DNA from: Treponemataceae bacterium
GTDB taxonomy: Bacteria; Spirochaetota; Spirochaetia; Treponematales; Treponemataceae
Assembly (NCBI GenBank): GCA_963624615.1
Contig: CAVFQN010000166.1
Location: forward strand, 1-62,559
Length of the DNA stretch: 62,559 nt
Direction of reading: 5' to 3'
Part shown: piece after piece, positions 1 through 62,300 of the stretch
Position numbering within the stretch: the first letter of the stretch is position 1
Layout: every line of letters starts with the position of its first letter
Made by a program: the position numbers and the translations under genes
The notes under the pieces: model-generated
The model's database searches: none
Told to the model about the DNA's origin: nothing
Seen by the model: only the letters and a program-made list of their open reading frames with translations

Positions 1-14
1 GGCCACCAAGCGTG

Positions 15-184
15 GAGCCCCTGCGTAGCAGTCGACCGCAGGCGGAGAACTGGGATGTTTTTTTGGAGGAAATTGATCACCAGGGGGCGGGCGAAGCCCG
101 CCCCCGCTGGGGAACTAAGCAAAGTTCAGACGGCTGAAAGCCTTTCGCCGAGGACGATGAGCGTTAGCGAAGGGCGGAAGGCTT
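15..184. repeat. GC-rich multi-hairpin (REP-like) element, probably truncated by the window start
   Basis: Perfect hairpin GGGGGCGGGC-GAA-GCCCGCCCCC (83-105) and an AAGCCTTTCGCC...GGCGGAAGGCTT stem (138-184) in otherwise AT-rich intergenic DNA. Confidence 0.55.
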
Positions 185-281
185 GTAGGTGTGAAAATTT
201 TGCTGATTTTTTTACTTTCCTGCTATTCTTGTTTTTATAATCTCTTTGCTTTAAATTGGGGTGGCTGACAAAGGGGCTTTT

Positions 282-840: not shown

Positions 841-3624
841 ATGAAAAAATTACAGGAAATTTTGGGTAAAGAGATTTTGTTTTTTGATGGTGGAACTGGG
901 ACTGTTTTGCAGGCAATGGGATTAAAGCCTGGGGAATTGCCTGAGACCTGGAATTACAAGTATCCGGAAAGAATTGTTGAGTTAAATTATGGTTATTACA
1001 AGGCTGGCTCTAACATCGTAAATACTAATACGTTTGGGGCTTTTATCACGAAGTTTCCTTTGGATTTGGAGAAGATTATTGAGGGGGCTATTGATAATGC
1101 GAATGTGGCGAGAGAGAGGATGAAGGGGGAATACCAGGGCGGGGAATTTGGCACCGAGGGCGGAATTGCACTCCAGGGCGGGCGTTTGAGCACCGAGGGC
1201 GAGCGTGGACACCAGGACGAACGTTTAGACACCGAGGGTGGGATTACACACCAGAGCGAACATTTAGCCACCAGGGGCGGGGATTTTGACACAACAGAAA
1301 TCGCCCCATCACAAAACACTAGGTCTGACAATCTTTTTATAGCTTTTGACATTGGGCCAACGGGAAAACTCCTGAAACCAATGGGTGACCTGGATTTTGA
1401 AGATTGCGTCCATCTTTACAAAAAATCTTTTGAAATTGCTTTTAAGAAAAATATTGACTGTGTTTTGATTGAAACAATGAACGATGGTTATGAATCCAAG
1501 GCGGCAGTTCTGGCGGCAAAAGAAACGATGGAAAATCTGGGGGTAAAACTTCCGATTATCGTGTCAAATGTTTATGACAAAGATTGCAGAACTTTGAGTG
1601 GCTCTACACCTGAAACTATGGTGGCTATGCTGGAGGGGCTTGGTGTTTCTGCAATCGGGGTAAACTGCAGTCTGGGGCCTTTAGAAATGAAAGAAACGGT
1701 TCGCAGATTGTGCCAGGCGGCTTCTGTGCCAGTTTTGGTAAAACCAAATGCAGGTCTGCCAAAAGTTCTTGATGGAAAAACTGTTTTTGATGTTGATTCT
1801 GATGATTTTGTAAAGGCGATGATTGAAATTTCGCAGTATGGGCCAGCAATTTTGGGTGGCTGCTGCGGAACTACGCCGGAATATATAAGAAAGTTACGAA
1901 AGGGGATTTGCGATAGCAGAACTGGTGGAGGTGGAATTGGCACATCGGGGGCTGGAATTTGCACTCCAGGTGCGAACTCTGAAACTCCAGGGGCGAAGAC
2001 TAGCCACCAAGTGGGGACTGAAAGTCTGGGACTGACGGGCAGTCACCAGGGCGACTCTGTCATCGGCTGCGTTTCTTCAAACACGCAAATTGTTTATTTT
2101 GGTGGGGAAAATCGGCCGGTTCTGATTGGCGAACGAATAAATCCGACTGGAAAGAAGAAATTTAAAGAGGCCCTCCGAAATGACGATATTCCCTACATCA
2201 TTCATCAGGGAATGGAACAGGAAAAAGCTGGTGCGGACCTTCTGGACGTAAATGTTGGACTTCCGGAAATTGATGAAAAAGAAATGATGATAAAGGTCAT
2301 GACAGAATTGCAAGCGGTGACAAATCTTCCTTTGCAAATTGATACGACTAATCCTCAGGTTATGGAAGCTGCCCTCCGCCGTTACAATGGCAAACCGATG
2401 ATAAATTCTGTAAATGGCAAAAAAGAGATTATGGATCAAATTTTCCCACTGGTAAAAAAATATGGGGGGCTTTTGGTTGCTTTGACGCTCGATGAGGACG
2501 GTATCCCTGAAACTTCTGAAAAAAGAATTGAAATTGCAAAAAAAATCTACAGGGAAGCGGAAAAATACGGTATTCAGAAAAAGGATATTATCATAGATCC
2601 TCTTGCTATGGCTGTTTCTTCTGATTCAAAGGCCGGCCTGGCAACGCTGGAAACAGTTCGGGCAATTAACGAAATGGGAGGGCTGACGAGTCTTGGCATT
2701 TCGAATGTTTCTTTTGGGCTTCCAAATCGCGAATTTGTAACATCATCATTTTTTACTATGGCTATGAATAACGGACTTAGTGCTGCAATCATGAATCCTC
2801 TGCAAATGGAAATGATAAAGGCCTACAAGTGTTTTTGTTTGCTGGCTGGAAAAGATGATAATTGTGTAGATTATATAAATTGGGCAGGTAATGTCGCTGT
2901 AAATCCAAGTCCTGTTTTGCAGGGGGCAGGTAAAGCGGAAAATGCAAAGACGGCGGAAACGACAGCCACAAATTTATCCTCTGAAAATCAATCACAATCT
3001 CCACTTTCTGATGCAATTATTCATGGATTAAAAGATGATGCTGCAAATGCTACCCGGGAATTGCTAAAATCGGTGGATAGTCTTGAAATCATCAACAAGC
3101 ATTTGATTCCGGGCCTGGATTTTGTGGGAAAACGTTTTGAACAAAAAACTATGTATTTGCCCCAACTGCTGATGGCGGCAGAGGCGGCGAAATCTGCTTT
3201 TGCAGAAATCAGGGATTTTATGGAAAAGTCGGGGAAAAAGGGGCAGCAAAAAGGAACTATCATCATAGCGACGGTAAAAGGTGATATTCACGACATCGGA
3301 AAAAACATTGTAAAGGTTTTGCTCGAAAATTATGATTTTGATGTTATTGATTTGGGAAAAGATGTGGCCCCGGAAATTGTAGTGGAAGCCTGCAAAAAAA
3401 ATCAGGTAAAACTGGTGGGGCTTTCGGCTCTGATGACAACCACAGTCGCTGCCATGGAAGAAACAATTAAACTTTTGCGAAAAGAATGTCCCTGGACGAA
3501 AGTTTGCGTTGGTGGGGCGGTAATGACCCAGGAATACGCGGATCAAATCGGGGCGGATTTTTACGGGAAAGATGCAATGGACACTGTAAGGTACGCCTTG
3601 GAATTGTTTGGAGAGAGGGAATAG
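841..3624 (+). CDS. metH: Cobalamin-dependent methionine synthase (Hcy-binding, pterin-binding, cap and B12-binding domains; no AdoMet reactivation domain), with two low-complexity insertions
   Basis: FDGGTGT, GVNC and GGCCGT Zn ligands, IGERINPTG pterin domain, GDIHDIGKNIV B12 motif. Confidence 0.92.
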   Translation: MKKLQEILGKEILFFDGGTGTVLQAMGLKPGELPETWNYKYPERIVELNYGYYKAGSNIVNTNTFGAFITKFPLDLEKIIEGAIDNANVARERMKGEYQGGEFGTEGGIALQGGRLSTEGERGHQDERLDTEGGITHQSEHLATRGGDFDTTEIAPSQNTRSDNLFIAFDIGPTGKLLKPMGDLDFEDCVHLYKKSFEIAFKKNIDCVLIETMNDGYESKAAVLAAKETMENLGVKLPIIVSNVYDKDCRTLSGSTPETMVAMLEGLGVSAIGVNCSLGPLEMKETVRRLCQAASVPVLVKPNAGLPKVLDGKTVFDVDSDDFVKAMIEISQYGPAILGGCCGTTPEYIRKLRKGICDSRTGGGGIGTSGAGICTPGANSETPGAKTSHQVGTESLGLTGSHQGDSVIGCVSSNTQIVYFGGENRPVLIGERINPTGKKKFKEALRNDDIPYIIHQGMEQEKAGADLLDVNVGLPEIDEKEMMIKVMTELQAVTNLPLQIDTTNPQVMEAALRRYNGKPMINSVNGKKEIMDQIFPLVKKYGGLLVALTLDEDGIPETSEKRIEIAKKIYREAEKYGIQKKDIIIDPLAMAVSSDSKAGLATLETVRAINEMGGLTSLGISNVSFGLPNREFVTSSFFTMAMNNGLSAAIMNPLQMEMIKAYKCFCLLAGKDDNCVDYINWAGNVAVNPSPVLQGAGKAENAKTAETTATNLSSENQSQSPLSDAIIHGLKDDAANATRELLKSVDSLEIINKHLIPGLDFVGKRFEQKTMYLPQLLMAAEAAKSAFAEIRDFMEKSGKKGQQKGTIIIATVKGDIHDIGKNIVKVLLENYDFDVIDLGKDVAPEIVVEACKKNQVKLVGLSALMTTTVAAMEETIKLLRKECPWTKVCVGGAVMTQEYADQIGADFYGKDAMDTVRYALELFGERE
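1134..1292 (+). repeat. In-frame degenerate 39-bp tandem repeat (21+18 subunits, about 4 copies) inside metH
   Basis: CCAG(G/A)(G/A)C starts at 1134, 1173, 1212 and 1251; encodes QGGEFGTEGGIAL / QGGRLSTEGERGH / QDERLDTEGGITH / QSEHLATRGGDFD. Confidence 0.85.
1905..2058 (+). repeat. Second in-frame degenerate 21-bp repeat insertion in the metH inter-domain linker
   Basis: 7-aa periodicity GGIGTSG/AGICTPG/ANSETPG/AKTSHQV; GC-rich compared with the rest of the gene. Confidence 0.7.
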
Positions 3625-3707
3625 TGGGCCTGGGAAGGCTGTCTGGAAGGTGGAGGTTCATCCGGAAGGGGTGTAGATTTTCCCCGGGGGCGTTTTTCCC
3701 CTATTTC

Positions 3708-3746
3708 CTCTGAAAAAGCATTGAAAATGATTTTTTAGAGAGGCCC
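3708..3746. repeat. Palindromic repeat family copy (module D)
   Basis: CTCTGAAAAAGCATTGAAAATGATTTTTTAGAGAGGCCC, abutting the TAA of the 3747..5057 gene. Confidence 0.8.
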
Positions 3747-5057
3747 TTAATTAAAAACTTTTCGCCGCCACTCTGATTCCAAATCTGCGATTGGAGTGAC
3801 AACTTCATCATCTTTTTTGGTAATTAAAGATTTTACATAAGGTTCGACAACCATGGATTTGTAACTTTCCCAGCGGGCGGGCAATTGCTCTGGAACGGTA
3901 AGCAGTTGGGCTGGCGGAAGATTTGTCAGAAGATGGGTATAAAAAACAGGCAGAATGTGTTCTGTCACATCTTTTACGGCAGAAAATCCTCCTGCTATAC
4001 CGAATTTTTCTGTTTCGAGATTCAAAAAATTTTTTCGCTCAAGAATTGCCCTTTGATTTTCGCTTTGGAAAAACCAGGTTATGAATTCGGTCGCTCCGAC
4101 AATGTTCTGGGCTTTTCGGTAAATTCCCATCATCGTAAACGAATCTTCAATCGGAAGATTTTTTTTCGAATCAGTTTTATCCTGAATAATCCAGCGATAA
4201 TCAATATTAAAATCCTGATCCTTCATCATCTTAAAAAGCTGGTCGCTGGTCGTATAAGCAAAAAGGGTTCTGCCGGAAGTTACCTGGCGATAATAAGGCA
4301 TAAATAAATATTTGTAGGCAAAATCTTCTTCGGTTTGTGCTGATGTGTTTTCTGTAATCACCCAATCTTTAAGTTCTGCTGCAGCCTGGGTTAAATTTGT
4401 ATCTCGCCAGACGATTTTTCCTTTTTCTTCGTGAAAATCTGCATCATAAATCTTGGTTGCAAGGTACAAAAAATCATTATTACTCAAAGGTGTAAATCCA
4501 ATTTTTGTGTAGGCACCTTTTTTATTTTTCTGATTGAAGGCCGAAGCGGTTTCGCGGATTTGTTTTAAGCTCAAGGTGTAATTATCGGGAATTAAATCCT
4601 TGTAGTCTGTCGAAAAAACAAGGGCAGGAAGATTGAAGCTCACTGGCAGCAAAAACTGAATGCCATTTTTCTGGCCGGCTTTTAAAAGCTGGTTGTAAAA
4701 AATATCGGTGGTGAGTTTTTGGTTATCAAAAATGTAGTTCAAGGAACGGTAATATTTCTGAGGATTATCTGTTCTGAGCCAGGAACCCACGATAATATCC
4801 GGGGAAGCTTCATCCTTTGCAGGCGGAATTGATAAGGCAGGATTTTCTTTGTAAACGAGAACGGCCTGATTATCGCTGTGAGTTTTGTTGAAAAGTTCTA
4901 CGTATTGGGCAAATTCGCTGTTACTAGTCCAAATTACAATTCTGTTTTCTTTATTTATTGCCGTTTTTTGCTGATTGCAAGAAACAAAAAAAATCTGGAT
5001 AAGGGCAAGGAAGACTGTAAAAACTGTTATGGTATTTTTTTTCTGAAAGTTCAACAT
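3747..5057 (-). CDS. Extracellular solute-binding lipoprotein (ABC substrate-binding-like)
   Basis: Signal peptide with lipobox FFVSC; PDIIVG and LLPVSFNLPALVF segments resemble sugar-binding protein family 1. Confidence 0.7.
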   Translation of the reverse strand: MLNFQKKNTITVFTVFLALIQIFFVSCNQQKTAINKENRIVIWTSNSEFAQYVELFNKTHSDNQAVLVYKENPALSIPPAKDEASPDIIVGSWLRTDNPQKYYRSLNYIFDNQKLTTDIFYNQLLKAGQKNGIQFLLPVSFNLPALVFSTDYKDLIPDNYTLSLKQIRETASAFNQKNKKGAYTKIGFTPLSNNDFLYLATKIYDADFHEEKGKIVWRDTNLTQAAAELKDWVITENTSAQTEEDFAYKYLFMPYYRQVTSGRTLFAYTTSDQLFKMMKDQDFNIDYRWIIQDKTDSKKNLPIEDSFTMMGIYRKAQNIVGATEFITWFFQSENQRAILERKNFLNLETEKFGIAGGFSAVKDVTEHILPVFYTHLLTNLPPAQLLTVPEQLPARWESYKSMVVEPYVKSLITKKDDEVVTPIADLESEWRRKVFN

Positions 5058-5072
5058 TGTATCTGAATTCTA

Positions 5073-5113
5073 GGAATTTCTAAAAACCGGATTTTGTGAT
5101 TTTTAGAAATTCC
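5073..5113. repeat. Palindromic repeat family, divergent copy (14-bp perfect stem)
   Basis: GGAATTTCTAAAAA-N13-TTTTTAGAAATTCC, just downstream of the aminotransferase stop. Confidence 0.65.
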
Positions 5114-5121
5114 CCGGAATT

Positions 5122-6399
5122 TTACATAGACTCAGCAATTTTGTAAATGCTTGAGTAAACGGCATCAATCTTATCTTCATCAATACTTGAAAATGCTACG
5201 CGCAAAGTATTTGAATCAATCTGAATAATTCCGATTCCTTCTTCTGCCAGTAATTTTTTTCGGATATCTTCGGCATTGCCAGTTTTTACGTGGAATGACA
5301 TAAAATAACCGGAATTGAATGGAAGAGGTTCCAAAACTTTTGACTGGTGACTGTTTACAAAATTGCGGACTGCATTGTAACGACTCTGCAACATTTTTCG
5401 GAGTTCTTTCTTCTGAGCTTCGTGGGCAGGATCTGTCAAAGCGTGCATTACAAGGCTTTGTGATGGAGTAGAAGAACAAGATACTGAAGAACGGATTGCT
5501 GCCATAAACTTTGTTGTCAAAGCGGTGTATTGAGCCGAGGTGAGATTTTTTGATGCAAATGTTATAAAACCTGCACGGAAGCCCCAGGCAAAATCTTCTT
5601 TTGTCGGACCGTCAGCTTTGATTGCAAGTACGTTTTCGTGAAGATCTGCGAGATATGCGAAAAGTGACTGAGGTTCAATGTCATCTTCGTAGTTCAAGCC
5701 AAAGTATGCGTCATCAGAAAGAACGATGACTTTTTTTCCACTCTCTGCAATTTCTTTTACGATGCGGACAATTTCCGCCGCTTCTGATTTTATAGGACTA
5801 TAGCCTGATGGGTTTTGTGGGAAGTTCAAAATAACACGAACTGAACCGTATTTTTCTGCATCAGCTTTCATTTTTGCTTCCAGGTCGGCTAGGTTGAATT
5901 TTCCGTTTTCAAAACACTTGAACTGGTGGAATTCTGCACCGCGGCGGGCAGAACAAATCAATTCGTAATTATCCCAGCAAGGGTCTGCGGCTAGCAAAGG
6001 TTTATCAACATCAACGAAAATATCACAAACATAAGACAAAACGGCGGTAAGCCCCGGAACCAAAATTGGGAGAGAAAAAGTTTTATCTTTTAATGAAGGA
6101 TTTTTTTCGATAAGTTTCTGTTTCCACATTTCACGAAAATCAGGATTTCCTGCGGTTTTTGCATAAGCAACGGTTTCTTTTGGCATGCTTTTTTTGTAAG
6201 AATCCAATTCGATTGGAGAATTGTTTGCAACTGCCATTCCAATTGTACCGTTTGCAAATTTGGCGTCTTTTGCAGCTTCGCCACCCTGAGAAATAATTCC
6301 GTTTGGAAAATAAAGGCGGATTCCCATATCAGACATGAGACCGTCTACAACAGAACCTTTTAAAGTTTCATTTAAACCTTGTGCTAATGGATTAATCAT
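5122..6399 (-). CDS. PLP-dependent aminotransferase class I/II
   Basis: NFPQNPSG, SDDAYFGL and DGPTKEDFAWGFRAG (PLP lysine) motifs. Confidence 0.88.
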   Translation of the reverse strand: MINPLAQGLNETLKGSVVDGLMSDMGIRLYFPNGIISQGGEAAKDAKFANGTIGMAVANNSPIELDSYKKSMPKETVAYAKTAGNPDFREMWKQKLIEKNPSLKDKTFSLPILVPGLTAVLSYVCDIFVDVDKPLLAADPCWDNYELICSARRGAEFHQFKCFENGKFNLADLEAKMKADAEKYGSVRVILNFPQNPSGYSPIKSEAAEIVRIVKEIAESGKKVIVLSDDAYFGLNYEDDIEPQSLFAYLADLHENVLAIKADGPTKEDFAWGFRAGFITFASKNLTSAQYTALTTKFMAAIRSSVSCSSTPSQSLVMHALTDPAHEAQKKELRKMLQSRYNAVRNFVNSHQSKVLEPLPFNSGYFMSFHVKTGNAEDIRKKLLAEEGIGIIQIDSNTLRVAFSSIDEDKIDAVYSSIYKIAESM

Positions 6400-6408
6400 A
6401 ATGTGGTA

Positions 6409-6437
6409 ATTATGCGGATTTAGACTTAGTTAGTCAA
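6409..6437 (-). promoter_or_regulatory. Sigma70-like promoter of the aminotransferase gene
   Basis: TTGACT-N17-CATAAT on the minus strand, 9 nt before the ATG. Confidence 0.6.
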
Positions 6438-6523
6438 CGATGGGGGAAAATCAGGAGAAAAACAGGGGGACAAGAGGATGGAGAAAAAAAATTGGAAGAT
6501 GACTACACGCGTATGTTTTGAGT

Positions 6524-6546
6524 TTCCGAATCGAGTTCGGAATGAC
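6524..6546. repeat. Short TTCC..GGAATGAC-type palindrome (dRS3/RPE-like)
   Basis: TTCCGAA-TCGAG-TTCGGAA-TGAC; related to 30124-30148 and 41045-41056. Confidence 0.5.
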
Positions 6547-6558
6547 TTTTGCCCTTAT

Positions 6559-6643
6559 GGGAACCTAAAAATTGCAATTTTTTGAGGTAACTTTGAAAAG
6601 GTGCACTTCTAAGTCTTGCTATTTCCAAGACTTAGAGATGCCC
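6559..6643 (+). repeat. Palindromic repeat family copy (modules A+B+C)
   Basis: GGGAACCTAAAAATTGCAATTTTTTGAGGTAACTTTGAAA...TCTAAGTCTTGCTATTTCCAAGACTTAGAGATGCCC. Confidence 0.9.
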
Positions 6644-6684
6644 TTATATTCTACATCACTCAAATTTGTGCTACACTGCCAATC

Positions 6685-7692
6685 ATGATTGCTAATATGG
6701 AAAATATTAAAAAAATCCTGGCTGATTATCACACTGAAGCCGGAAAAAGACTTGTTGGTCAGGAAAATCTTCTTGATGATATATTGATTGCTTTTATAGC
6801 CGGCAGCCACGTTCTTTTGGAAGGGATGCCTGGACTTGCAAAAACTTTGACAATAAAAACTGTTGCAGAACTTTTGGGACTGGATTTTAAGAGAATTCAG
6901 TTTACTCCGGATTTGCTGCCTGCTGATGTTACCGGAACTTTGATTTATGAACAGGGGAAAGGAAGTTTTTCGGTTCGCAAAGGGCCGATTTTTGGGAATA
7001 TCATCCTTGCTGATGAAATTAACCGAGCCCCTGCAAAGGTTCAATCCGCAATGCTGGAAGCCATGGAAGAAAGACAGGTTACGATTGGTGAGCAATCTTA
7101 CAAACTGCCGGAGCCTTTTTTCGTACTGGCGACCCAAAATCCGGTTGAACAGGAAGGAACTTACAATCTCCCGGAAGCGGAATTGGATAGATTTTTGATG
7201 AAGCTTATTATCAATTATCCTGCTGCTGATAATGAAATTCAAATTGTAAAAACTTGCGGAAAAGCCCCATCTGTGCCAGTAAAACAGGTAATCACAAATT
7301 GGGATATTGAAGCGATGAAAACATCGGCTGATAAAATCACTTGTGATGAAAAACTGGTCGAATATATTGTTTCGATTTTGACTGTCACAAGGCCGGAAAA
7401 TTCCAATCACAAGCAGCAAAACGGCAGAACAATTGTAAATACCACAAATACAAATGATATTACCCACTATATTCAGTTTGGAGCTTCTCCTCGAGCTGGA
7501 ATTGCTATGCTTCAAGCTGCAAAAGTCCACGCTCTTTTTGCGGGCCGGGATTTTGTTTTACCGGAAGATATAAAAGCGGTTGCTCTGAATGTTCTTCGTC
7601 ACCGTTTGGTTTTGTCATACGAAGCCGCTGCGGATAATGTTTCTAGTGATGAGATAATTTCGCGGATTTTGGATTTTGTTCCGCTCCCATAA
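6685..7692 (+). CDS. moxR: MoxR-family AAA+ ATPase
   Basis: Walker A GMPGLAKT, RIQFTPDLLPAD, Walker B ILADEINRA, ATQNP, GASPR; the track start at 6616 lies inside a repeat. Confidence 0.92.
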   Translation: MIANMENIKKILADYHTEAGKRLVGQENLLDDILIAFIAGSHVLLEGMPGLAKTLTIKTVAELLGLDFKRIQFTPDLLPADVTGTLIYEQGKGSFSVRKGPIFGNIILADEINRAPAKVQSAMLEAMEERQVTIGEQSYKLPEPFFVLATQNPVEQEGTYNLPEAELDRFLMKLIINYPAADNEIQIVKTCGKAPSVPVKQVITNWDIEAMKTSADKITCDEKLVEYIVSILTVTRPENSNHKQQNGRTIVNTTNTNDITHYIQFGASPRAGIAMLQAAKVHALFAGRDFVLPEDIKAVALNVLRHRLVLSYEAAADNVSSDEIISRILDFVPLP

Positions 7693-7713
7693 ATCACGCA
7701 GATTATATAAGTT

Positions 7714-8601
7714 ATGCAGAAAAGTTACTTAGCCGACAATGATTCGCTACTAAAAAAAGCTTCTTACCTCAGACTGGCTGCCAGAGATTTGGCGGAAGGG
7801 ATGAAATCGGGAAATTTCCGCTCGCTCTACCGCGGTCATGGAATTGAGTTTGAGGGAGTTCGCCAATACATTCGCGGAGATGATATCCGAAGTATAGACT
7901 GGAACGTGACTGCAAGAATGGCAGGTCCTTATGTTAAGATTTTTGAAGAAGAAAGGGAACTGCAGATTTTTATTGTGGTAGATTCGTCGGAATCTATGAG
8001 GCTGGAAATAAATCATAAAACAAAATATTCCCAGGCGGCAGAAGCGGCAGCTTTAATCACCATGGCGGCAGAATTAAATGCCTGCCCGATTGGAGCCGTT
8101 TTTTTTGATGGGGAAATTCATTTTTCCTGCAAACCCCAGATTGATAAAAAAAATATTATGATGATTTTGCAGCATCTGGACAAATTACCAGAAAATCAGA
8201 AAAAAGGTTCAGCTCTTGCCTCTGCACTGACGGGAGCTGGAAAACTTTTGAAAACAAAGTCCCTGGTTTTTGTTTTTTCGGATTTCAGGTCTAGTGATTG
8301 GGAAAAGCCCATTACTGCCTTAGCCCACACAAATGACGTAATTGCGATGAGGCTGCATGATTCTTATGATGACCAGTTACCAGACTTGGGAACTGTCGTT
8401 TTTGAAGATTTGGAATCTGGCTTGAAGATGGATTTGCCGTCATCATCAGAAAATTTCAAAAAAGAATGGAAAAACTACAACAAGTCGCTTACAAACAGGT
8501 GGCGGGATTTTTGCATTAAGCACGGAATTATGCCTGTAACTTTGGACACAAAATCGGAAGCCCTGCAGGTTTTAAATCAGACTTTTTCAGGGACGAGGTA
8601 G
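7714..8601 (+). CDS. DUF58 / vWA-like protein of the MoxR operon
   Basis: GIEFEGVRQYIRGDDIRSIDWNVTAR, VDSSESM and FSDF motifs. Confidence 0.9.
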   Translation: MQKSYLADNDSLLKKASYLRLAARDLAEGMKSGNFRSLYRGHGIEFEGVRQYIRGDDIRSIDWNVTARMAGPYVKIFEEERELQIFIVVDSSESMRLEINHKTKYSQAAEAAALITMAAELNACPIGAVFFDGEIHFSCKPQIDKKNIMMILQHLDKLPENQKKGSALASALTGAGKLLKTKSLVFVFSDFRSSDWEKPITALAHTNDVIAMRLHDSYDDQLPDLGTVVFEDLESGLKMDLPSSSENFKKEWKNYNKSLTNRWRDFCIKHGIMPVTLDTKSEALQVLNQTFSGTR

Positions 8602-8610
8602 GAAAAAAAT

Positions 8611-9579
8611 ATGGCTACAATTCAATCTCAACAAATCCTCCTGCCAAAAAAAGTTTACATTGGCGACACTGCAGAACTCCGTTGTCCTTTTAATTCTGAC
8701 GAAGTGATTTTTAGCCAGCTGACTATGAATGGGCCGGTAGAAATTACGATAGAAGTTTTTACAAAAGAATTGGATGCCCAGGATTTTGAAATTCTGCACT
8801 TAAATCTTGAAAAAATCGGGGAAAATTATTTTCAGCTGGAAGTCACTTTTAAGCCCTGGAAAACTGGAACTGTCATTTTTCCGCCGGCAAAAATCGGGGA
8901 AACGGAAATTATTTTTGAACCTGTGAATGTTGTTTCAATCATAGAACAAAACTCCATCACTTCGCTAAAAGAAAACACTTCTCCCCTCCTGCTTCCGGGA
9001 ACGACCTACAAGGTTTATGGGGCAATCATCATTTTTATAATTTTGCTGGTTGTGATTATCCGGCTGATTGTAAAACGCAAAAAACTGGCCTTTTTTATTC
9101 AAACCAGAAAACTTTTACGAAAATACAAAAAAAACAGGAAGATTACGGTCAAAAAACTCAGGCAGCTGGTTTTGGCGGCTGAGGACGAAAATTCTGGAAA
9201 AATTTCTGATAAGGATTTTGCAACGGAATTCCAGCATATTTTGCGAAATTATATGGAAGTTCGTTTTGATTATCCTTTTACAAAAAGTGCAAGTTCTGAA
9301 CTGATGAAAGGATTTTTTGCGGCAACAAATCACATTTTGTCAACAGAAAAGGAAGAAGCTTTTGGGGATATTGCAGCAAGTTTTATCAGGACTGATTTTG
9401 TCCGCTACAGTGAAAATGGACTTTTTAGAGATGGCGAAAAATCAGAAATTGTAAAAAATGTGATAGGAAAAATTGAGATTTTGGAAAGGTGCGAGGAGAA
9501 AGCAAGTGGGGATTTTGACACCACCGCAGACGAAAAGTCTCCTGCCGCCCCAACCCACCAGGAGGTCAAAAATGCCTGA
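8611..9579 (+). CDS. Bat-operon membrane protein (BatD/DUF4381-like), single TM helix
   Basis: Lies between DUF58 and the vWA gene; Ig-like N-terminus, TM followed by basic residues, C-terminal DFVRYS motif. Confidence 0.6.
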   Translation: MATIQSQQILLPKKVYIGDTAELRCPFNSDEVIFSQLTMNGPVEITIEVFTKELDAQDFEILHLNLEKIGENYFQLEVTFKPWKTGTVIFPPAKIGETEIIFEPVNVVSIIEQNSITSLKENTSPLLLPGTTYKVYGAIIIFIILLVVIIRLIVKRKKLAFFIQTRKLLRKYKKNRKITVKKLRQLVLAAEDENSGKISDKDFATEFQHILRNYMEVRFDYPFTKSASSELMKGFFAATNHILSTEKEEAFGDIAASFIRTDFVRYSENGLFRDGEKSEIVKNVIGKIEILERCEEKASGDFDTTADEKSPAAPTHQEVKNA

Positions 9580-12070
9580 TTTTCAAAATCCTGCCGCCTT
9601 TCTTTTACTCATCACAATCCCCCTCATTTTTATTCTGCGAAAATTAAAAATTTTCAACAGGGTTTCTTTTCCTGCCGTTTTGGCGGACTGGCATGGCAAA
9701 CATTTTGTCTGGAAAGAAAAATCACAAAAATTCTTTTCCCTGCTGGCAAAAATCATTTTGATAATCGGTTATATTCTGGTCATAACAGCCCTGGCCGATC
9801 CCGTAATCTCCCACCAGGAAAAAATCTACACAAGTTCTGGAACTGACATTATTTTTCTGGTCGACACAAGCCCTTCCATGGCGGCAAAAGACGTAAATGG
9901 AGAAACGCGGCTTGAGGCGGCAAAAAAATCAATAAAAAGTCTGACACAAACTCACGACGGCTGCCGATTTGGAATTGTTGGGCTGGGAAGTAACGCTTCG
10001 GTTTTGGTTCCACCGACCGGAGATTTAACTTATTTTTCTGAAAAACTAGGCCAACTGCAGGTTGGAATTTTGGGAAATGGCTCTGCCATTGGAGATGGAC
10101 TGTCAACGGCAGTCTGCCACCTGGCTTCATCTTCCGCTCCAAAAAAATGTATTGTTTTGCTCACTGATGGGGAAAATAACGCCGGCGAAATCCACCCGGA
10201 AACGGCAGCAAAACTTGCTGCAGAAAGGAAAATTACGGTTTACATTGTTGGGCTGGGCTCAAAGGGAACTGTGCCGATTGAATACACCGACCCAATCACC
10301 GGAAAACTTTATTCCGGCTATCTGGATTCGGATTTCAACTCTGCTTCGCTGAAAAAAATTGCAGGTCTGGGAAATGGTCGCTATTTTGAAGTAAGAACGA
10401 TAGAAGACCTCGCCGCCACGCTATCAGCAATCTCAAAAATTGAAAAAGTAAGTCAAAATTATACATACAAAACTGTAAACAAAACTTATTACGATAAAGT
10501 GCTTTTTGTCGCCATTATTCTTTTTATCATCGCCTGGTTTATAAAAAGAATTATGCTCAAAGAAATGATTTGCTTTAAGTACAAAAAAATTCTCTGGGTT
10601 CGGAGCGGATTTTTGTCATTCTGCTTTATCATGCTGATTTTGGCCTACAAAGGGCTTTCCTGGGGAACTTATTTGCTGCCGGTTCAAAAAAATGGAAGTG
10701 CCGTTTCTATGGTTTTTGATATTTCAAATTCCATGCTGGCTAAAGATGGTCCTGGCGGAATTTCAAGGCTCAAGGCAGCCTCCATCTACGCAAAAAAACT
10801 TTTGTCCAAAATGAATGGCGTTTCAACTTCGGTTGTTTTGGCAAAAGGAGATGGTTTGGCGGCAATCCCGCTTACAGAAGACACCGCAATCATAGAATCT
10901 CTGCTGGACGTTATGAATCCTGGCTTGATGACTGTGCCGGGAACTAGCCTCGGAAAGGGAATTTTGAAGGCCAAAGAAACTTTTCCGACAAATTACGCTG
11001 CGGCAGGCAGGATTTGGGTCTTTACTGATGGAGAAGAAACTGACGGTCAGCTTGAAAATGCCTTTGCAGAATGTTTAAAATCCGGCATTCCTGTAACGGT
11101 TATCGGATTTGGAAAAGAGGTTGAAGCCCGGGTTCTTGCCGGTGATGGAAAAACTGAAGTTCTCACCGCCCTGCGTTCGGTCGAAATAAACAACGCAATT
11201 CAGTCGGCCAGCGAAAAATTTGCCATTTTTAAAAATCAGGCGGATATAAATTATATAAACTCAAGTGATAAAGGTTCGGCCATTTCGCTTTTAGCCCAAT
11301 TAAAAATGGGAGACCGGGAAAATTTTATCACATCATACGAAGCAAAACCTGTCCCACGTTACAAATTATTTTTACTTTTGGCAGTATTTTTCTTTATTTT
11401 GAGTTACGTAATCACAGAAATGGATTTTTCCAGATTTTTTACAAAAAAAACTAGAAAAAGTCTTGTGACAATCTGCTTTACCCTCGCAACCTGCACTGTA
11501 TTTTTGCCAGTTTTTTCCGGCTGTTCAAATAAGACCTGGGAAATTCTGGACGGAACTTACGCCTGGCACAAGAAAGATTACAGAAAAGCAGTTTCGCGTT
11601 TTATGGACGTAAAATCCCAGGCAGAAGAAAAGTCTGATACAGAGATTTTGGATTATTCGCTTTATGATTTGGGAACGGCTTATTTGATGATTGGGGAAGA
11701 TGAAGCCGCCCTGGAAAAATTTCTGGCACTTTCTGAAACAGCCCCACAAAATCTTAGGTATTCGGCATATTATAACGCTGGAATTGTAGCTCACAAAAAT
11801 CAGGATTACCAGGCCGCCAAAGAGTATTTTAGAAAAGCGATCGAAATAGATAATTCCAGGGTGGAAGCCAAAATCAATATGGAACTTTCAATGCAAATGG
11901 CAGAGAACAAGGTAAATCAGAACGAAAGCCAGGCTATTCCTGCCAGCCAACAGGAAAAATCACCTCCAGACATAGAAAATGCAATATTTCAGCACATAAA
12001 GGAGAATGACCAAAAACAATGGAAAAACAGCGAAACCAATCAGTCCCAAAATCTTGCAGAAGATTATTAA
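9572..12070 (+). CDS. Fused BatA-BatB-BatC-like protein (vWA-TM-vWA-TM-TPR)
   Basis: GGAGG RBS before ATG 9572; two MIDAS sets (DTSPS/LLTDGE and DISNS/VFTDGE); TPR repeats (YDLGTAY, YYNAGI). Confidence 0.82.
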   Translation: MPDFQNPAAFLLLITIPLIFILRKLKIFNRVSFPAVLADWHGKHFVWKEKSQKFFSLLAKIILIIGYILVITALADPVISHQEKIYTSSGTDIIFLVDTSPSMAAKDVNGETRLEAAKKSIKSLTQTHDGCRFGIVGLGSNASVLVPPTGDLTYFSEKLGQLQVGILGNGSAIGDGLSTAVCHLASSSAPKKCIVLLTDGENNAGEIHPETAAKLAAERKITVYIVGLGSKGTVPIEYTDPITGKLYSGYLDSDFNSASLKKIAGLGNGRYFEVRTIEDLAATLSAISKIEKVSQNYTYKTVNKTYYDKVLFVAIILFIIAWFIKRIMLKEMICFKYKKILWVRSGFLSFCFIMLILAYKGLSWGTYLLPVQKNGSAVSMVFDISNSMLAKDGPGGISRLKAASIYAKKLLSKMNGVSTSVVLAKGDGLAAIPLTEDTAIIESLLDVMNPGLMTVPGTSLGKGILKAKETFPTNYAAAGRIWVFTDGEETDGQLENAFAECLKSGIPVTVIGFGKEVEARVLAGDGKTEVLTALRSVEINNAIQSASEKFAIFKNQADINYINSSDKGSAISLLAQLKMGDRENFITSYEAKPVPRYKLFLLLAVFFFILSYVITEMDFSRFFTKKTRKSLVTICFTLATCTVFLPVFSGCSNKTWEILDGTYAWHKKDYRKAVSRFMDVKSQAEEKSDTEILDYSLYDLGTAYLMIGEDEAALEKFLALSETAPQNLRYSAYYNAGIVAHKNQDYQAAKEYFRKAIEIDNSRVEAKINMELSMQMAENKVNQNESQAIPASQQEKSPPDIENAIFQHIKENDQKQWKNSETNQSQNLAEDY

Positions 12071-13419
12071 ATTTTCTCATTTTTTTCACAGCAACGGTCT
12101 TTTTTTCCCAAGGATTATTCTCTCAAACTTTAACTGCGGCGGAAATCAGCCAACTTTCTTTTGTCCCGGCAGAAAATCAGGAAAAATTTACAAAAACTGA
12201 CCTGAAATTTGAGGTAAATATTCCAAAAATCAAAGCGTCAAAAATCCAAATTTTGTCAAACAATCTTCCTGCCAACGTGACTTTTAAAACTGTAAGGAAA
12301 ATTCAGGATTATGAAAATGAAGGAACGAAAATTGAAATCTGGTATTCTTTTGAAAAAGCTGGTAATTATCAACTTCCCCCGCTCCCCCTCATGATTCAGA
12401 ACAAAAAACGAAATATCAAATTTCAAAAAATCACTGTGACGGACGATCCTTCAAAACAACAGCCAAAAATGGTTGTGATTTTTGATAAGGGCTTCAAAGT
12501 GACTTCAAGCGACGGTGCAAATCCCCAAACTGCTTTTTCGGCAAGGGTTGGGGAAAAATTAAAATTTACGGTTTATCTTCAATATTCTGCCCAGCTGGTT
12601 CAGTTCACCTGGGACCTTCCAAAAGACTCCATTTTTACCCAGACAAAAACTTTTGAAATTACAGAAGTAAAATACCGCGAAAAAAATTACAGCCACGATT
12701 TAATCCCGGTTGCAAAATTTGAATGGACAGGACTTAAAACAGGAATCCAGGAAATGCCAAAGATCAAAATTACAGCAACTGGCTACAACGGTTACAGAAA
12801 CGAACTTTTGCTTCCAGCCGTAAAAATTAATTTTGTGGTGGGTCAGGCTAATCAGCAAAATTCTGATGATAAAACTTTTTCTGCCGCATTTTCCCAAAAT
12901 CCGAGGGAAGGTGGTGGGAAAAAATCGCCAGAAATCACAGAAGAAATTTGCCAGAAACTTGCCGATCTTTATTCCCAGGAAAGAAGGGCTGTTTTCAATT
13001 ATAAGGCAATCAGAAAAGAAAGAATTGATTTGGAAACTTCCCTAGGAATTCCTTCTACGACTAGTGATGATTTTTCCATGCACTGGCTTTTAATTTCGAT
13101 TGGGCTGGCAGGCGTTTTTCTGGTATTTTTTATCATCTGCTTAAAAAAGCACCATTTTATCCGGATTTTGATTTTTGGAAGTCTGCTTTTGCTGGCCATT
13201 GTTTCAATTTTGTATTCTGTCGGGGTAAGGTCGCACACTTATGGAATTTGCAAAGGCTGCAGTATTTCTTCGGTTCCTGAAGATTCTGCCCTGGCCGTTT
13301 CGGAAATAAAGGCCGGGAACAGAGTTGAAATCACAGAAAAAGCCGGAAACTGGTATTACATAGAACTGGGCCAGATTGGTGGCTGGGGATTGAAAGATAA
13401 TATCATTTTAATAAAATAA
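12019..13419 (+). CDS. BatD/BatE-like protein with C-terminal SH3b-like domain
   Basis: Signal peptide, Ig-like repeats, two TMs, GNRVEITEKAGNWYYIE...GWG SH3-like end. Confidence 0.65.
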   Translation: MEKQRNQSVPKSCRRLLNFLIFFTATVFFSQGLFSQTLTAAEISQLSFVPAENQEKFTKTDLKFEVNIPKIKASKIQILSNNLPANVTFKTVRKIQDYENEGTKIEIWYSFEKAGNYQLPPLPLMIQNKKRNIKFQKITVTDDPSKQQPKMVVIFDKGFKVTSSDGANPQTAFSARVGEKLKFTVYLQYSAQLVQFTWDLPKDSIFTQTKTFEITEVKYREKNYSHDLIPVAKFEWTGLKTGIQEMPKIKITATGYNGYRNELLLPAVKINFVVGQANQQNSDDKTFSAAFSQNPREGGGKKSPEITEEICQKLADLYSQERRAVFNYKAIRKERIDLETSLGIPSTTSDDFSMHWLLISIGLAGVFLVFFIICLKKHHFIRILIFGSLLLLAIVSILYSVGVRSHTYGICKGCSISSVPEDSALAVSEIKAGNRVEITEKAGNWYYIELGQIGGWGLKDNIILIK

Positions 13420-13449
13420 AATTTCAAGATAATTTTTCGAGGTGACGTT

Positions 13450-14016
13450 ATGGATATGGGTGATATTTTAGCACAGTGGGATAATCTTCAAGCTGATAAA
13501 GTCCGCAAGCAAAAAGAAAGTGGCAAAAATACTGTTTCGCATAAAAAAGCAAATGCTCCTACCCCCGAAGAAAAAGCCCTGGCAGCAGAAAAAGATTTTG
13601 AAGCAAAACTCAAAGCCGAAAATTCAAAAGAAATAAATCCTATGGAATTGTGGTTAAGACGTTACGGCACGATTGATAAAGACAAAATCGCAGAAGAGCA
13701 ATACGAACTCACAAAAGAGCAAGATAGAAATTACCTGCTCAATATGAAGCCCGAAGCCCGCCTGGATTTGCATGGCCTCCACCAGGACGAAGCCCAAGTC
13801 CGCCTGAATGCTTTTATCACCGACTGCTGTCGCCACTGTCTACGCAAAGTTCTCATCATCCACGGAAAAGGAATACATACAACAGGCACAGATCCCGTTT
13901 TGGGCCAACTCGTAAGAAAATTCATAGAAAACGACAAACGCTGCGGAACATCCGGCCATCCCAAAACAAAGCAGGAAGGCGGCAGTGGTGCGACCTGGGT
14001 TATTTTGAAAGGTTAA
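13450..14016 (+). CDS. Smr domain protein
   Basis: LDLHGL, IIHGKG and GGSGATWV motifs; GAGG RBS. Confidence 0.9.
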   Translation: MDMGDILAQWDNLQADKVRKQKESGKNTVSHKKANAPTPEEKALAAEKDFEAKLKAENSKEINPMELWLRRYGTIDKDKIAEEQYELTKEQDRNYLLNMKPEARLDLHGLHQDEAQVRLNAFITDCCRHCLRKVLIIHGKGIHTTGTDPVLGQLVRKFIENDKRCGTSGHPKTKQEGGSGATWVILKG

Positions 14017-14029
14017 CTGATTAAATTAA

Positions 14030-14073
14030 GGGTATCTCTGAAAAATCATCTTCGATGCTTTTTCAGAGATACC
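14030..14073. repeat. Palindromic repeat family copy (module D) between convergent genes
   Basis: GGTATCTCTGAAAAA-N13-TTTTTCAGAGATACC, a perfect 15-bp inverted repeat. Confidence 0.85.
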
Positions 14074-14075
14074 AT

Positions 14076-15308
14076 TTACCACAAAGTCAACATAGCCGAC
14101 AATGGCAAATGATCCGAATACCCCTCCCCACTGTAAACCCGGTATGCGTTGGGAATAGAGTTTTTCCCAGCCCATGGATTTTCCGCTTTAGGCCCAAAAG
14201 CCGAAATCATAACATTTCCCGTCACAAAAATATGGTCAATTCGTTCCCAGGAATTTTCGTAGTAATAACTGCCAATTTCGGTCGCAAAAGAACCGGAATC
14301 ATAAAACCAGGGAGAATAGGCTCGTAAAAGCCGGCCATTTTCGCCCCGGAAGATTGTGTTTGAGGATTTTGGGGACGTGGAAGTGGGAGTGGATGGAGAA
14401 GCGGAGGAGCGGGAAGACGATGCGGTGCGGGAATGGTGTGCCCCGGAGTGAGGATTGTCCGCCTCGGAGTGGGAACTGCCATCCCCGGTGTCAAAATCCC
14501 CGACCCCAGTGCCAATCGCACTCTCGGAAGGCAAATACCCCGTCCTGGTGTACAAATTCCTACCTTCAGTGCCAAAATCCCCCTCAAACTCACACACAAA
14601 CTCCCCCGCATCCCGATTAAAATCTCCACACATCACCACGGCAAAATTCTCACCCGCAGACCTTTCCTGCAATTCCAAAACCCGATTCGTCAGCAGATTT
14701 TCCTGCCAGTCCCGCCAAATTTCACTGGCTTCCTGGCCCCCAGACTTAGACTTCCAATGATTTACAAAAATAACCAGATTTTTCCCATTCACGTCCGCCG
14801 TAACCTGAATCACAGGCCTCGTAGATGGCTGTTCTTCCCCATGCGACAGAATTTTCATCGAATGTAATTTCATATCTTTTAATTCAAACCGCGAAAAAAC
14901 CGCACAGCCAATTGCAGCCCCATTTTCCTTTGCAAAACAAGCGTAAGACCAGGCCTTAGAATTATCCCAAGCCCCACCAGCAAGCTGATTCGCAATATCC
15001 TGGACGACAGCCGCATTTTCAATTTCTTCAAGCACAATAATATCCGCATTAAGAGAAGTCATAATCTCACAAAGTCTGGAAAGCCGCACCAAATATTTAT
15101 CTTTTGACCACTTAGCCAGATTTTGATAATCAGAATATTCAGTCCCCTCAATCTCCGCATCAAAAAAAGTCTGAGCATTCCAGCAGGCAAGCGAAATACT
15201 CTGCCGATCGCAATTCTCCTTTCCCCCATCAGAATTCTTCAGACTCAAATTACAGGCACAAAGCCCGCCCCAAATAAAGCCAATCATAATCAAAAAAATT
15301 TTCTTCAT
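14076..15308 (-). CDS. Endonuclease/exonuclease/phosphatase (EEP) family lipoprotein with a low-complexity insertion
   Basis: WNAQTFFD, LEEIEN, VNHWKSK, CGDFN, IDHIF and SDHLP motifs; AAAGGAG RBS before ATG 15308. Confidence 0.88.
   Translation of the reverse strand: MKKIFLIMIGFIWGGLCACNLSLKNSDGGKENCDRQSISLACWNAQTFFDAEIEGTEYSDYQNLAKWSKDKYLVRLSRLCEIMTSLNADIIVLEEIENAAVVQDIANQLAGGAWDNSKAWSYACFAKENGAAIGCAVFSRFELKDMKLHSMKILSHGEEQPSTRPVIQVTADVNGKNLVIFVNHWKSKSGGQEASEIWRDWQENLLTNRVLELQERSAGENFAVVMCGDFNRDAGEFVCEFEGDFGTEGRNLYTRTGYLPSESAIGTGVGDFDTGDGSSHSEADNPHSGAHHSRTASSSRSSASPSTPTSTSPKSSNTIFRGENGRLLRAYSPWFYDSGSFATEIGSYYYENSWERIDHIFVTGNVMISAFGPKAENPWAGKNSIPNAYRVYSGEGYSDHLPLSAMLTLW
14356..14590 (-). repeat. 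In-frame GC-rich degenerate repeat insertion in the EEP gene
   Basis: About 75 aa (GDFGTEG...GDFDTGD...SSRSSASPSTPTSTSP) between the GDFN and SPW segments; shares 15-20-mers with the metH insertion. Confidence 0.75.
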
Positions 15309-15395: not shown

Positions 15396-15560
15396 AGGAG
15401 GGGAAAGCCTTCCCCTGCCTATAATCGAAAATTCGTTAAAAACAGAGCGCGCCAGCGGTCTGTTTAGGATTATCGAAAAAACGGCTCGAACCAAGATTTA
15501 TCGAAGTTCCACCCCCCCTCTGCGGGCCTCAAATTCCAGTCCGCAACGCCCGTTTTCCTT
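15396..15560 (-). repeat. GC-rich REP-like element ending in a 23-bp hairpin shared with 25921-25943
   Basis: 15396-15418 is the exact reverse complement of GCAGGGGAAGGCTTTCCCCTCCT. Confidence 0.65.
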
Positions 15561-24294: not shown

Positions 24295-24877
24295 GGATGA
24301 AAAAAATAAAAAACGCCCCTATCATTTTGGAGAAAAACTCCGCCAGGTTAGGGAACACAAGGGCTACACCCTCAAAGTGGTTGCCCAGCGAGCAGGCGTT
24401 AGTGAAAGTCTTGTTTCCCAAATCGAAAGAAATCACGTTTCCCCTGCAATCGATACTTTGCTTGCCCTTGCTGATGTTTTGGACATAAACCTTGAATTTT
24501 TGTTTGAAGAATATCGCAAAGACCGGCCAGTCCAGATTATTCGTGCTGATGAACGCCCTTCTATTCACGAGGACGACATTGTTTACGAAGGTCTTGCAAA
24601 ACAGGCAAATTCTGAAACTTCAATCGAATCTTATATCATAAAAATTCCGGCAGGTTCCCACACCCACCGGGGATCTTATGGCCACCTGGGCCGCGAAATC
24701 GGCTATATCATAAAAGGCAAGGCTCAAATTATTTATGATGGAAAATGCTACGAACTGAATGAAGGAGATTCTGTTTCCTTTTCGGCAGGGGCTTCCCATT
24801 CCATCGAAAATATTGGCGAAACTGACTTGGAAGCAGTTTGGGTTGTAACTCCAGCCCAGCGCTTTATCGATAAATAG
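24272..24877 (+). CDS. XRE-family HTH transcriptional regulator with cupin domain
   Basis: GEKLRQVR...VSESLVSQIERNHVSPAIDTL HTH; GHLGREIGYIIKG...LNEGDSVSF cupin; AAGGAG RBS. Confidence 0.9.
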   Translation: MMLSQNPEDEKNKKRPYHFGEKLRQVREHKGYTLKVVAQRAGVSESLVSQIERNHVSPAIDTLLALADVLDINLEFLFEEYRKDRPVQIIRADERPSIHEDDIVYEGLAKQANSETSIESYIIKIPAGSHTHRGSYGHLGREIGYIIKGKAQIIYDGKCYELNEGDSVSFSAGASHSIENIGETDLEAVWVVTPAQRFIDK

Positions 24878-59338: not shown

Positions 59339-62300
59339 TCAGAAGGTAGAAACAAAACTGAAATTAAAAACAAATCCCTGAGTTCTAGGATAAAAAGCCG
59401 TTTTTAATTCAAAACTAAGAATTTCTGATGAAAGGAATCCCACCGAAGACGATGCATCTACATTCACAAGCAGATAAATATTATCATTAATGTACGTTTG
59501 GCTGAAAATGTCCATAAAATAATTTTCGCGGCGGACGTCCGGGAGTTTTACCAGGCGGGTATCGTAATCCAGCCTAAAATCATAGCCGGCTTTTATCCCA
59601 ATCCTGCTAAAATACAAAAGCAAAGGCGAAAAACCGTCGTGAATTTCCCAGCCCAGCAGGAGGATTTCAGGATTTATTTTAAGGGCGGTACCTGCGTTAT
59701 TCAAAAGTTCTGCGGAAATGGAAGATGGCAGACTCAGAACAAAGCCATTTTTCATTTGAAGGGGATTCAACCCAGGAATTTCAATTTTTCCAAGCAGGCC
59801 GACATTCATCTGGCTCACATGCAGAAGCAAAAAATTGTAATCCTTTTCAGCTGCTTCCTGGCTATAAAGCTGGCCGTCAATAGTCGTCCCAATTTTGCTA
59901 TAAATGACATCTTTTTCAGGCTTAACCTGACGGTAGGAATACAAATCCCAAAAAGCATAAAACCTTGCCCCTGCAGAAAAACCGCATTTTTCATAAGGAG
60001 AAATTCCATATTGGTGGATATTTGAATAAGTCCCGGTCGCATCCACCTCAAACAAATCATAAGAATTTTCAAAAGATGGCCAATTAGACAGGCTTTTGTA
60101 ATCATCAAAATACTGGGCATCATAATAATCGGTTGAAGCAGAATAATAAGTTTGCAGGTCAACTGTAACCTTACCCACATTCAAATCCTGGGGCATAGTC
60201 CACGAAGTTCCTGCCATCGCCTCAAAATTATACTGACCGTCCATATTAAACTTAAACAAAGAACCAACTTTTATATCTACCGGGGTGGAAGTATTTTCAA
60301 AAAAAGTGGCAAAAGATTTGTCTTTTTTAAAATTTCTGGCCTCCAATTCCTGCTGATACTGAAAACTCGTCGGAGCGTTTATAGCCGTCGTAAAAGTCAA
60401 AGGAAGATATGTCCAGCCAGCCGAAATCGTAAATTTATTATTCATAAAAGGATCTGAATGACTCGTCAAAGAAAGTCCCAGCCCTGGCCATTTACTCGCC
60501 CCATTTTCCAGGGAAAGTTTTCTGATTGGCCAAAATGGAATGGCATTCAGCGGAAACATATATTTTAGAGGATAATATTTTGAAAGTTCGTGACCATTTA
60601 AATCATTTTTAGAAAAATTGATTGCAGGCTGGTTGTAAGAATAATCGACAGGGGAATTTTTCTGCAAAGTTCCTTCTTCAAATTCCAGATTTTCGCTAAA
60701 AATACAGCACAAATCATTGTGATTAAGTTTTTTGGAAGCGTAATACAAGATTTTTCCCTTCAAATAAGGAGAATTTGCCCCACCATACAAATTATTTTTT
60801 TGCAAAAAGACTTTTTCTATCTGGTAATTTTGATTCAGGGTCATGTAACCCATTTTTGTAAAATCGCCAGGCTGATTTGTGACATATTCAAAGATGTAAA
60901 GAAAATCGGAGGGGTCATTTTTTCTGGCTTTTGAAGTACTGTGATTTACAAGTCGAAGTGATGAAAAATTGATTTCCCGACCGTCATGGGATTTTATGCC
61001 CCAGAAATTTTCGCCGCCCTGGTGGGCCACTTCTTTCCCGGCAAAATCCCACTGAGCCAGAGTTTTTTTACCCTTTTTTGTAATTATGTATGATAATTTT
61101 CCGCCGCCTGCCGCACAAAGGGCCGACGGAATGACATTTTTTTCAAAAGATTTTTCAAAAAGCAAAATGCTGTCATCTTCATCATCTGGCAGGGAATAAA
61201 TTTGAATTTTGGGATATTTTTCATCAACATTCACCCCAGCCAGCAGATTTTCGCCATCAGTTGACAAAATAATAGCCGCATCCCGCAAACTAAAGTCGTA
61301 ATCTAAAAATTCCCGTTCCCGCAAATCATAAATTCTACAACAATCCTGATAAAATTCTTCCCGACTTTTAGACATTTTGTAAGAAATAACAAGAAATTGC
61401 CCGTCTGGCGAAAGTTTTATTTTATCAATTTTATCAGCCCAAAATAAAAGCTGGCGTAATTTTGATTTATTATTGAGATCAAAAAGCGAAACTTCGTGGC
61501 GGTGGCCGTCATACCAGACAATTCCATAATCAGAATATAAAACCTGCTGATAAAGCCCCTCCTGGTCGTTCGGAAAAATTGAAGTGACAGATTTTTCCAG
61601 CTCAAGCATGAGATCTAAATCGGAAGGAAGGGGAACAGAATCCTTAAAATCTTCCCAAAGAGAAAAAAGGGATTTTCCGTAAACCAGGTAAATAATTCCA
61701 GGCTGAAAAAACAAGTGAAGGGAGCCCGATTTTTGCCAGTATTCTTCAAATTTCTTATAACCGTAGAATTGAATCAGATAAGCAGTAAATGCGGATGTTG
61801 CGGCGTAAAGCAAGTCGTTTCCCGGGTAATTTTCGTAAGTAACAGAACATTCAAAATATGATGGAAAAGATTTTTCAAGTTTAGCCTGGGACAAAATCTG
61901 AAGAAAATAGCCGTCATTAAAACGCCCCTGAGAAAAATTTTCGCCCACAAAGGTGGACTTCCCGCTCTGGTAGGGAAATTCATCACCGTCCAAGGTGGAC
62001 TTCCCGCCCTGAGGGAGAATCTGTTCACCAGCCCCGGAATTTTCCTCGCCCGCCTGGAAAATTCCTCCATCATCAGCCCAAAAAGCCCTGCCTTCAATAA
62101 ACGAAAACGGCACATTCAAAAGCGAAACCGGAGCATACTGTTCGCCCACAATCGTAGAAATAAACTGATTAAAAGGACTTCTGATTGCCCCAGCCACCGC
62201 CTTATAAACTTCGTGATAAAAAAGCCCCAAAAGCCCATCATCAAAATAAGTCTGATTATCAGCCGGGACAGAATCAAAAATCACAATTCTATTGTAGGGA

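Follow-up and report, generated by a model that had tools for sequence, protein, structure and literature searches.

The 62,559-nt stretch analysed here (hereafter the window, contig CAVFQN010000166.1, C166 in coordinates below) belongs to the metagenome-assembled genome (MAG) of a Treponemataceae bacterium (G000; 2.44-Mb assembly, 39% GC, 302 contigs, 88% complete) and carries ~20-bp degenerate tandem repeats that form one genome-wide family. A preliminary description of the window had reported an identical 14-mer in three genes, the methionine synthase gene metH (1279-1292, +), a gene labelled 'Bat' (9508-9521, +) and a gene of the endonuclease/exonuclease/phosphatase family (EEP; 14488-14501, -). 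The 14-mer is present at all three places with a frame offset of 0, and the three copies are units of the family. We propose, with a probability of about 0.5, that the family is a neutral satellite, in which slippage would change the number of units, ectopic copying would seed new sites, and selection would filter the reading frame and intolerant places.

The exact 14-mer occurs six times in G000, far above the 0.047 occurrences expected from composition (order-4 Markov model), and its degenerate form has five matches in the window against an average of 0.15 in 100 shuffles, none of which reaches five. A refined 22-position profile, with six arrays as its seed (three of them in the window), detects 113 clusters of at least two units, 53 of at least three and 31 of at least four in G000; the corresponding numbers in two codon-block shuffles of the genome are 7-8, 0 and 0. 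The 89 retained calls collapse into 78 loci, of which 51 are coding and 27 intergenic (~8 kb in total), and arrays are present in 49 of the 1988 genes delimited by a simple in-house gene caller. CarB, PrmC and BirA, presumably, are further proteins bearing loops of the family. In a unit, a G-run and an A/T tract precede the CACC core, which a second G-run follows; the information content of the profile is uneven, with the CACC core conserved, and the profile is not self-complementary, i.e. the units are non-palindromic. Units of the same array are 53-58% identical. Locus-specific unit variants, in which the downstream G-run is swapped for a C-rich run, are found at C56:9135-9319 and C191:8742-8856 of G000.

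The autocorrelation of the arrays has its peak at lag 20 in spacers; in genes the peaks lie at 21, 18, 39 and 42. The commonest intergenic unit spacing is 20, followed by 21, and a 7-nt period is absent (0.22-0.23 at lag 7 versus 0.44-0.45 at lag 20-21). Among the 89 calls, 38 are sense, 21 antisense and 30 intergenic, and every frame is used. Both orientations, the use of all frames and the period of 20 in spacers imply that the repeat is defined at the DNA level, the shared GDFDT peptide being one of six readings. The single frame on the coding strand, which had been described for the three 14-mers, is therefore true of these but not of the family. Nor is the family specific to protein loops, as had been thought, since 27 of its 78 loci are intergenic. 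The reading frame nevertheless marks the coding arrays, in which 126 of 170 unit spacings are divisible by three versus 27 of 82 in intergenic arrays.

Within the genus the family is restricted to one lineage. Matches to a 16-base pattern number 17 in G000 and 18 in a second genome (G339), and none of the other 336 genomes of the genus has more than three, so that these two are the only enriched ones among 338. G339 is the sister genome, with 93.8% identity to G000; it is likewise an incomplete MAG (80% complete), of which 1.64 of 2.1 Mb was covered. In these 1.64 Mb the G000 profile detects 42 clusters of at least three units versus 0 in shuffled sequence, many of them orthologous to G000 loci. 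Neither 166 kb of other loci of the genus nor 325 kb of metagenome MetH loci shows a profile excess. In an exact-pattern scan of GTDB contigs, seven of at least 119 loci listed had three or more profile matches; among the matches listed, two are ~20-bp arrays (from uncultured Treponema sp.), another is a 15-bp repeat, and the remainder are probably chance matches. It is possible that the family occurs in distant genomes.

The first host gene in the window, metH (841..3624, +), encodes a cobalamin-dependent methionine synthase with homocysteine-binding, pterin and B12 domains. Array 1 (1133..1300, +) has eight units, which add ~55 residues to a variable loop of the homocysteine-binding domain. 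Its units are spaced 19, 20, 19, 20, 19, 20 and 21 bp, i.e. as a 39-bp dimer, so that alternate units are translated in different frames and the frame is maintained by pairs of units; a unit length of 18 or 21 bp, given in the preliminary description, does not apply here. The 17 of 20 matching bases between metH and EEP and the 11-mer common to both are exactly as reported. Array 1 does not fold stably (z +1.27, with 181 of 200 shuffles folding equally well) and has no match in phage or plasmid collections, and it is the only one of the three originally noted sites that Tandem Repeats Finder detects. Array 2 (1915..2071, +) has four units spaced ~21 bp in the linker that joins the homocysteine-binding domain to the pterin domain and is translated in the third frame (1932-2071). 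Arrays 1 and 2 are shorter in G339, by 75 and 99 bp, respectively.

The second host gene (8611..9579, +), upstream of a vWA/TPR gene, has no Pfam match; 'Bat' is the label of the preliminary description. Its C-terminal tail (9500..9576, +) holds one strong unit (9508-9529) plus decayed sequence, and the sister has several 18-21-bp units at the same place. The EEP gene (14076..15308, -) starts at 15308 and encodes a 410-residue protein with an exact match in the protein collection. Its insertion (14370..14582, -), downstream of the GDFN motif, comprises six units at 21-bp spacing (14438-14582) and then an S/P/T-rich stretch. A single-sequence AlphaFold model of the EEP protein was uninformative (pLDDT 36.7). 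A single unit lies in the last gene of the window (61014..61035, -), where G339 has 75 bp more (3-4 units).

Alignment to orthologues, suggested in the preliminary description, shows that both metH segments are missing from 15 of 15 MetH orthologues (near-full-length genus matches picked from 30 loci), the EEP segment from 5 of 5 and the 'Bat'-tail segment from 5 of 5. The same MetH loops hold unrelated repeats in other treponemes: a degenerate 18-bp tandem repeat (L251), an element common to L216 and L241, and a 21-bp duplication (L223 and L225). In L216 one element is present at two sites of the gene. Since other treponemes fill the same loops with unrelated repeats, the loops are permissive, and the family is one of several colonists of them. 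Unrelated repeats also occupy the MetH linker in L216, L227-L230, L241 and L247.

The arrays turn over in length between the sisters and between strains. In the 62 of 89 calls that could be mapped to G339 (a set that includes some both-strand duplicates or calls spanning N-gaps), length differs in 57. In the whole alignment, with N-containing gaps dropped, sister length differences at unit-bearing sites are divisible by three in 85 of 91 coding cases versus 28 of 69 intergenic ones. Many inserts are fixed within a species. Within species, an EEP allele with seven more residues, otherwise one residue different, was found, as was a near-perfect 6-residue duplication of the 'Bat' tail in 4 of 10 sister-type alleles. 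G339 also has three identical 16-mers spaced 20 bp. From such perfect adjacent copies we infer slippage as the source of unit-number change; in line with it, units are alike at 12.3 of 22 bases within arrays versus 10.5 between arrays. A 252-bp intergenic length event was observed on C56 of G000. The picture of a dispersed, tandem, non-palindromic, lineage-specific repeat in permissive loops, with a copy number that changes there, thus holds good. Neither outcome that was named as refuting it, conserved segments in orthologues of the genus or motif counts at the level of composition, was observed.

Divergence of the units is close to neutral. In 82 aligned unit pairs of the sisters, 25-28% of positions differ, a value that may be inflated by misaligned paralogous units; fourfold sites differ at 17% (22% at G/C), second codon positions at 1.2%. 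Unit substitutions involve all base pairs. The core cytosines are altered in 27 of 218 cases, about as many as neutral change along a single lineage would produce if the ancestor was close to the consensus, so these changes do not demonstrate purifying selection on the motif. The inserts are probably neutral for enzyme function. A simulation (sister score 12.4 versus 4.7) that assumed descent of G339 from G000 is invalid as a test of selection and was discarded. Loss of mismatch repair was rejected as a driver, MutL and MutS domains being in open frames in 5 of 5 genomes.

On the proposal of a neutral satellite, replication slippage would add and remove whole units in arrays, and ectopic copying would place one or a few units at short sequences that resemble them, thereby seeding new sites and refreshing the consensus. 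Arrays in genes would persist as neutral filler if their net length preserves the frame, and selection would merely purge frameshifts and inserts in intolerant places. The bending of the period from 20 to 18, 21 and 39 in genes and the absence of whole arrays from the sister argue against strict spacing and for tolerated filler. Ectopic copying, by template switch or gene conversion, is a tentative element of the proposal. Among 13 multi-unit segments present in one sister only, the empty junction has a unit-like monomer in five (background 3.9%). Best unit matches across loci of at least 19 of 22 bases number 30, versus 17, 11 and 8 in column-shuffled nulls, a slight excess.

Several observations weigh against this proposal. 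Eight of the 13 empty junctions fall under the seed threshold. No exact stretch longer than 20 bp common to two arrays was found among the 78 loci, and no donor was found for the sister-specific segments, their best matches being 13-19-bp words or an 18-24-bp near match; among 54 clean coding indels, those of other repeat families have 95-100% identical copies elsewhere, whereas no donor was found for those of this family. Units within sister-specific segments are 62.5% alike (44 pairs, none above 90%), which is below the prediction of faithful duplication after the split. Neighbouring units resemble each other no more closely than units two positions apart do (0.56 versus 0.58), and the constant 20-21 period is not explained by slippage alone. 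The direction of the events, examined at three sites (metK-nth, fliI-fliJ and an oxidoreductase), was suggestive at one: at metK-nth the closest outgroup matches the empty allele, while of three further outgroups one reaches the length of the filled allele and two fall in between, and at the oxidoreductase site even the short allele carries 3-5 additional residues. Both MAGs being incomplete and G339 partly covered, donors may be missing. The sister-specific segments could be contracting old heterogeneous arrays, blocks from unassembled donors, or products of mutagenic synthesis.

Filled and empty alleles, at most of which the event may have gone either way, showed no evident fixed ends or target duplication when compared by eye and by a flank-similarity score. 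No fixed unit length, terminal repeat or donor copy was found for the arrays. The Y1 (HUH) transposase PF01797, the one transposase family searched for, was not found in G000 or G339 (88% and 80% complete), and it was found in G011 and G018. The dispersed element of the preliminary description is accordingly a dispersed repeat, whereas a mobile element with fixed ends is not shown.

An alternative origin of the constant period is a lineage-specific DNA-binding protein that polymerises at two-helical-turn spacing and organises the nucleoid, the motif and the period being kept by selection or by motif-licensed duplication; loci would then converge without common descent. The Discussion of PMC8161180 proposes such a protein for the 20-21-nt repeat class, and the constant period with variable sequence, the conserved CACC core within an uneven profile, the small haplotype sharing between loci and the absence of a strand preference agree with it. 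We regard this origin as rather unlikely: the core cytosines change at about the neutral expectation, whole arrays are missing from the sister, the period bends in genes, and no candidate protein was identified, though no proteome-wide search was made. Quite improbable, in our view, is that the arrays are written by an enzyme, i.e. that noisy ~20-base units are added where the DNA is nicked or broken, by a polymerase or reverse transcriptase that is error-prone and realigns its template, a single near-consensus one, so that new arrays would be born heterogeneous and donorless. The heterogeneous, donorless sister-specific segments with no obvious target duplication are what it predicts, but their heterogeneity would also follow if they were older than the split and one sister had since lost them. 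The template would possibly be the loop unit of a hairpin-rich intergenic repeat. In six G000 copies of this repeat, whose loops are 111-115 nt long, the unit is near consensus (17-24 bits), and short G-rich direct repeats, separated by one period, lie on either side of it; the unit is, however, present in just 14 of 51 scored copies. The two reverse transcriptases found in G000, C117:289-1242 (L197) and C136:1-558 (L198), both look, by sequence, like those of diversity-generating retroelements (DGRs), none was found in G339 (80% complete), and all base pairs of the units are substituted, not adenines only. The L197 enzyme adjoins an HRDC-like-looking gene and a possible template repeat. If it were true that new arrays are born heterogeneous, a DNA-writing process of a new kind would be involved. 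Such writing would generate new protein loops in a telomerase-like way and would account for the entire class of constant-length, variable-sequence repeats.

The same hairpin-rich repeat could itself be the mobile master, with which the loop unit spread, the coding arrays being offshoots that lack its flanks. The repeat has ~69 G000 copies by an exact 12-base core, several subtypes, a variable inner stem-loop and a structured fold (z -3.35), and no Rfam or plasmid match; the copy at 1..200 (+) of the window holds one family unit (67-88) in its inner loop. The loop unit, in the same orientation, is present in the 14 of 51 G000 copies and in 6 of 18 G339 copies, several of which hold arrays. No trace of the flanks was seen at coding arrays, however, and the 3' end of the repeat matches 95 of the 338 genus genomes, in only two of which the units are enriched. 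As 11 of 14 mapped copies are common to the sister, the repeat is mostly old; of the two copies called 'absent', one is in fact present but interrupted, and one copy is missing at the orthologous G339 site (C26:60670). We consider a master role very doubtful. The repeat being older and more widespread than the units, the latter are likely its passengers, carried by it to some spacers. Chance, or convergence among GC-rich low-complexity protein linkers, can hardly account for the family, even though the array peptides are rich in G, A, T, P and E and poor in aromatic and aliphatic residues, and weak two-unit calls such as 24650-24693 may be due to it: intergenic period-20 arrays in both orientations, coding arrays in all frames, the lack of a profile excess in the genus and metagenome MetH loci, and the enrichment of the 16-base pattern in two genomes alone refute it.

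Other repeats were seen in this lineage. A ~40-bp perfect hairpin family is very abundant in G000 (e.g. C226 ~15180 and C229:7031; top 12-mers in 86 and 64 copies), varies in presence between the sisters, and resembles joined insertion sequence ends. Other small repeat families, including a short palindromic element, lie in frame in genes (C6:6504, C191:5747), and a 69-bp piece resembling the repeat at 15400-15530 of the window sits in a carB-like gene. Two-copy tandem repeats of 24 bp (34211-34261) and 18 bp (33558-33596) lie within one gene of the window, the former scoring weakly as a family unit. A folP-like gene (C88 ~11893 of G000) seems to change frame within a family array, by assembly error, pseudogene formation or phase variation. 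In the window, Rfam at gathering threshold yielded only a tRNA, the gene of which lies at 31546-31619 (-). A replication-strand bias of the arrays (29 versus 23) was left unused, the skew proxy being confounded by codon bias.

Repeat DNA of this family supplies new loops to dozens of proteins, MetH included, and the sister pair makes the case tractable: sites occur both filled and empty, unit numbers change between strains, and the same family is seen with and without the constraint of a reading frame. Heptamer arrays of cyanobacteria, the short tandemly repeated repetitive (STRR) sequences and long simple repeats, are degenerate and occur in spacers and in frame in housekeeping genes, where they change in 21-base steps. 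The treponeme family resembles them as degenerate tandem arrays in both settings, but has no 7-nt periodicity. Unlike the variable repeats of DGRs, it differs at all base pairs, not specifically at adenines, and no master copy was found. The Rickettsia palindromic elements, to which the preliminary description likened the units, are described as 105-146-bp stem-loops with terminal inverted repeats, which are inserted in frame in conserved proteins and also between genes and are likely neutral or slightly harmful to the enzyme (PMC2229807). In-frame fusion with conserved proteins, additional intergenic copies and a likely neutral or slightly harmful effect are common to both, while the treponeme family is tandem, variable in length and, as seen in metH array 1, unfolded. 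The Nostocaceae small dispersed repeats (SDRs) are dispersed units of ~20 bp, tandem in varying number, and possibly mobile with no known enzyme, and SDR5 has a defined target, HIP1 (PMC5861425, PMC2884548). Dispersed ~20-bp units in variable tandem number and possible mobility by no known enzyme are shared with them, but the treponeme family showed neither a fixed target nor a fixed unit sequence. The closest likeness is to the bacterial tandem repeats of constant length (20-21 nt) and variable sequence of Subirana and Messeguer, which have no explained function or origin and are described as generally non-coding, with large single-species families outside genes (PMC8161180). Searches of the treponeme literature returned no description of the treponeme family, though the supplements of PMC8161180 and a 2020 J Bacteriol paper may list spirochaete cases; the class is a described one, while these searches, in line with the preliminary description, gave no record of the family itself. 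Like those repeats, it has a 20-21-nt unit that is heterogeneous around a short conserved motif, and many short, species-specific arrays per genome (78 loci; 2 of 338 genus genomes enriched). Unlike them, it is hosted by a treponeme and has 51 of its 78 loci in frame in genes, in both orientations and with periods of 18, 21, 39 and 42. As it lacks the non-coding feature of the class, we consider it a variant and not a member.

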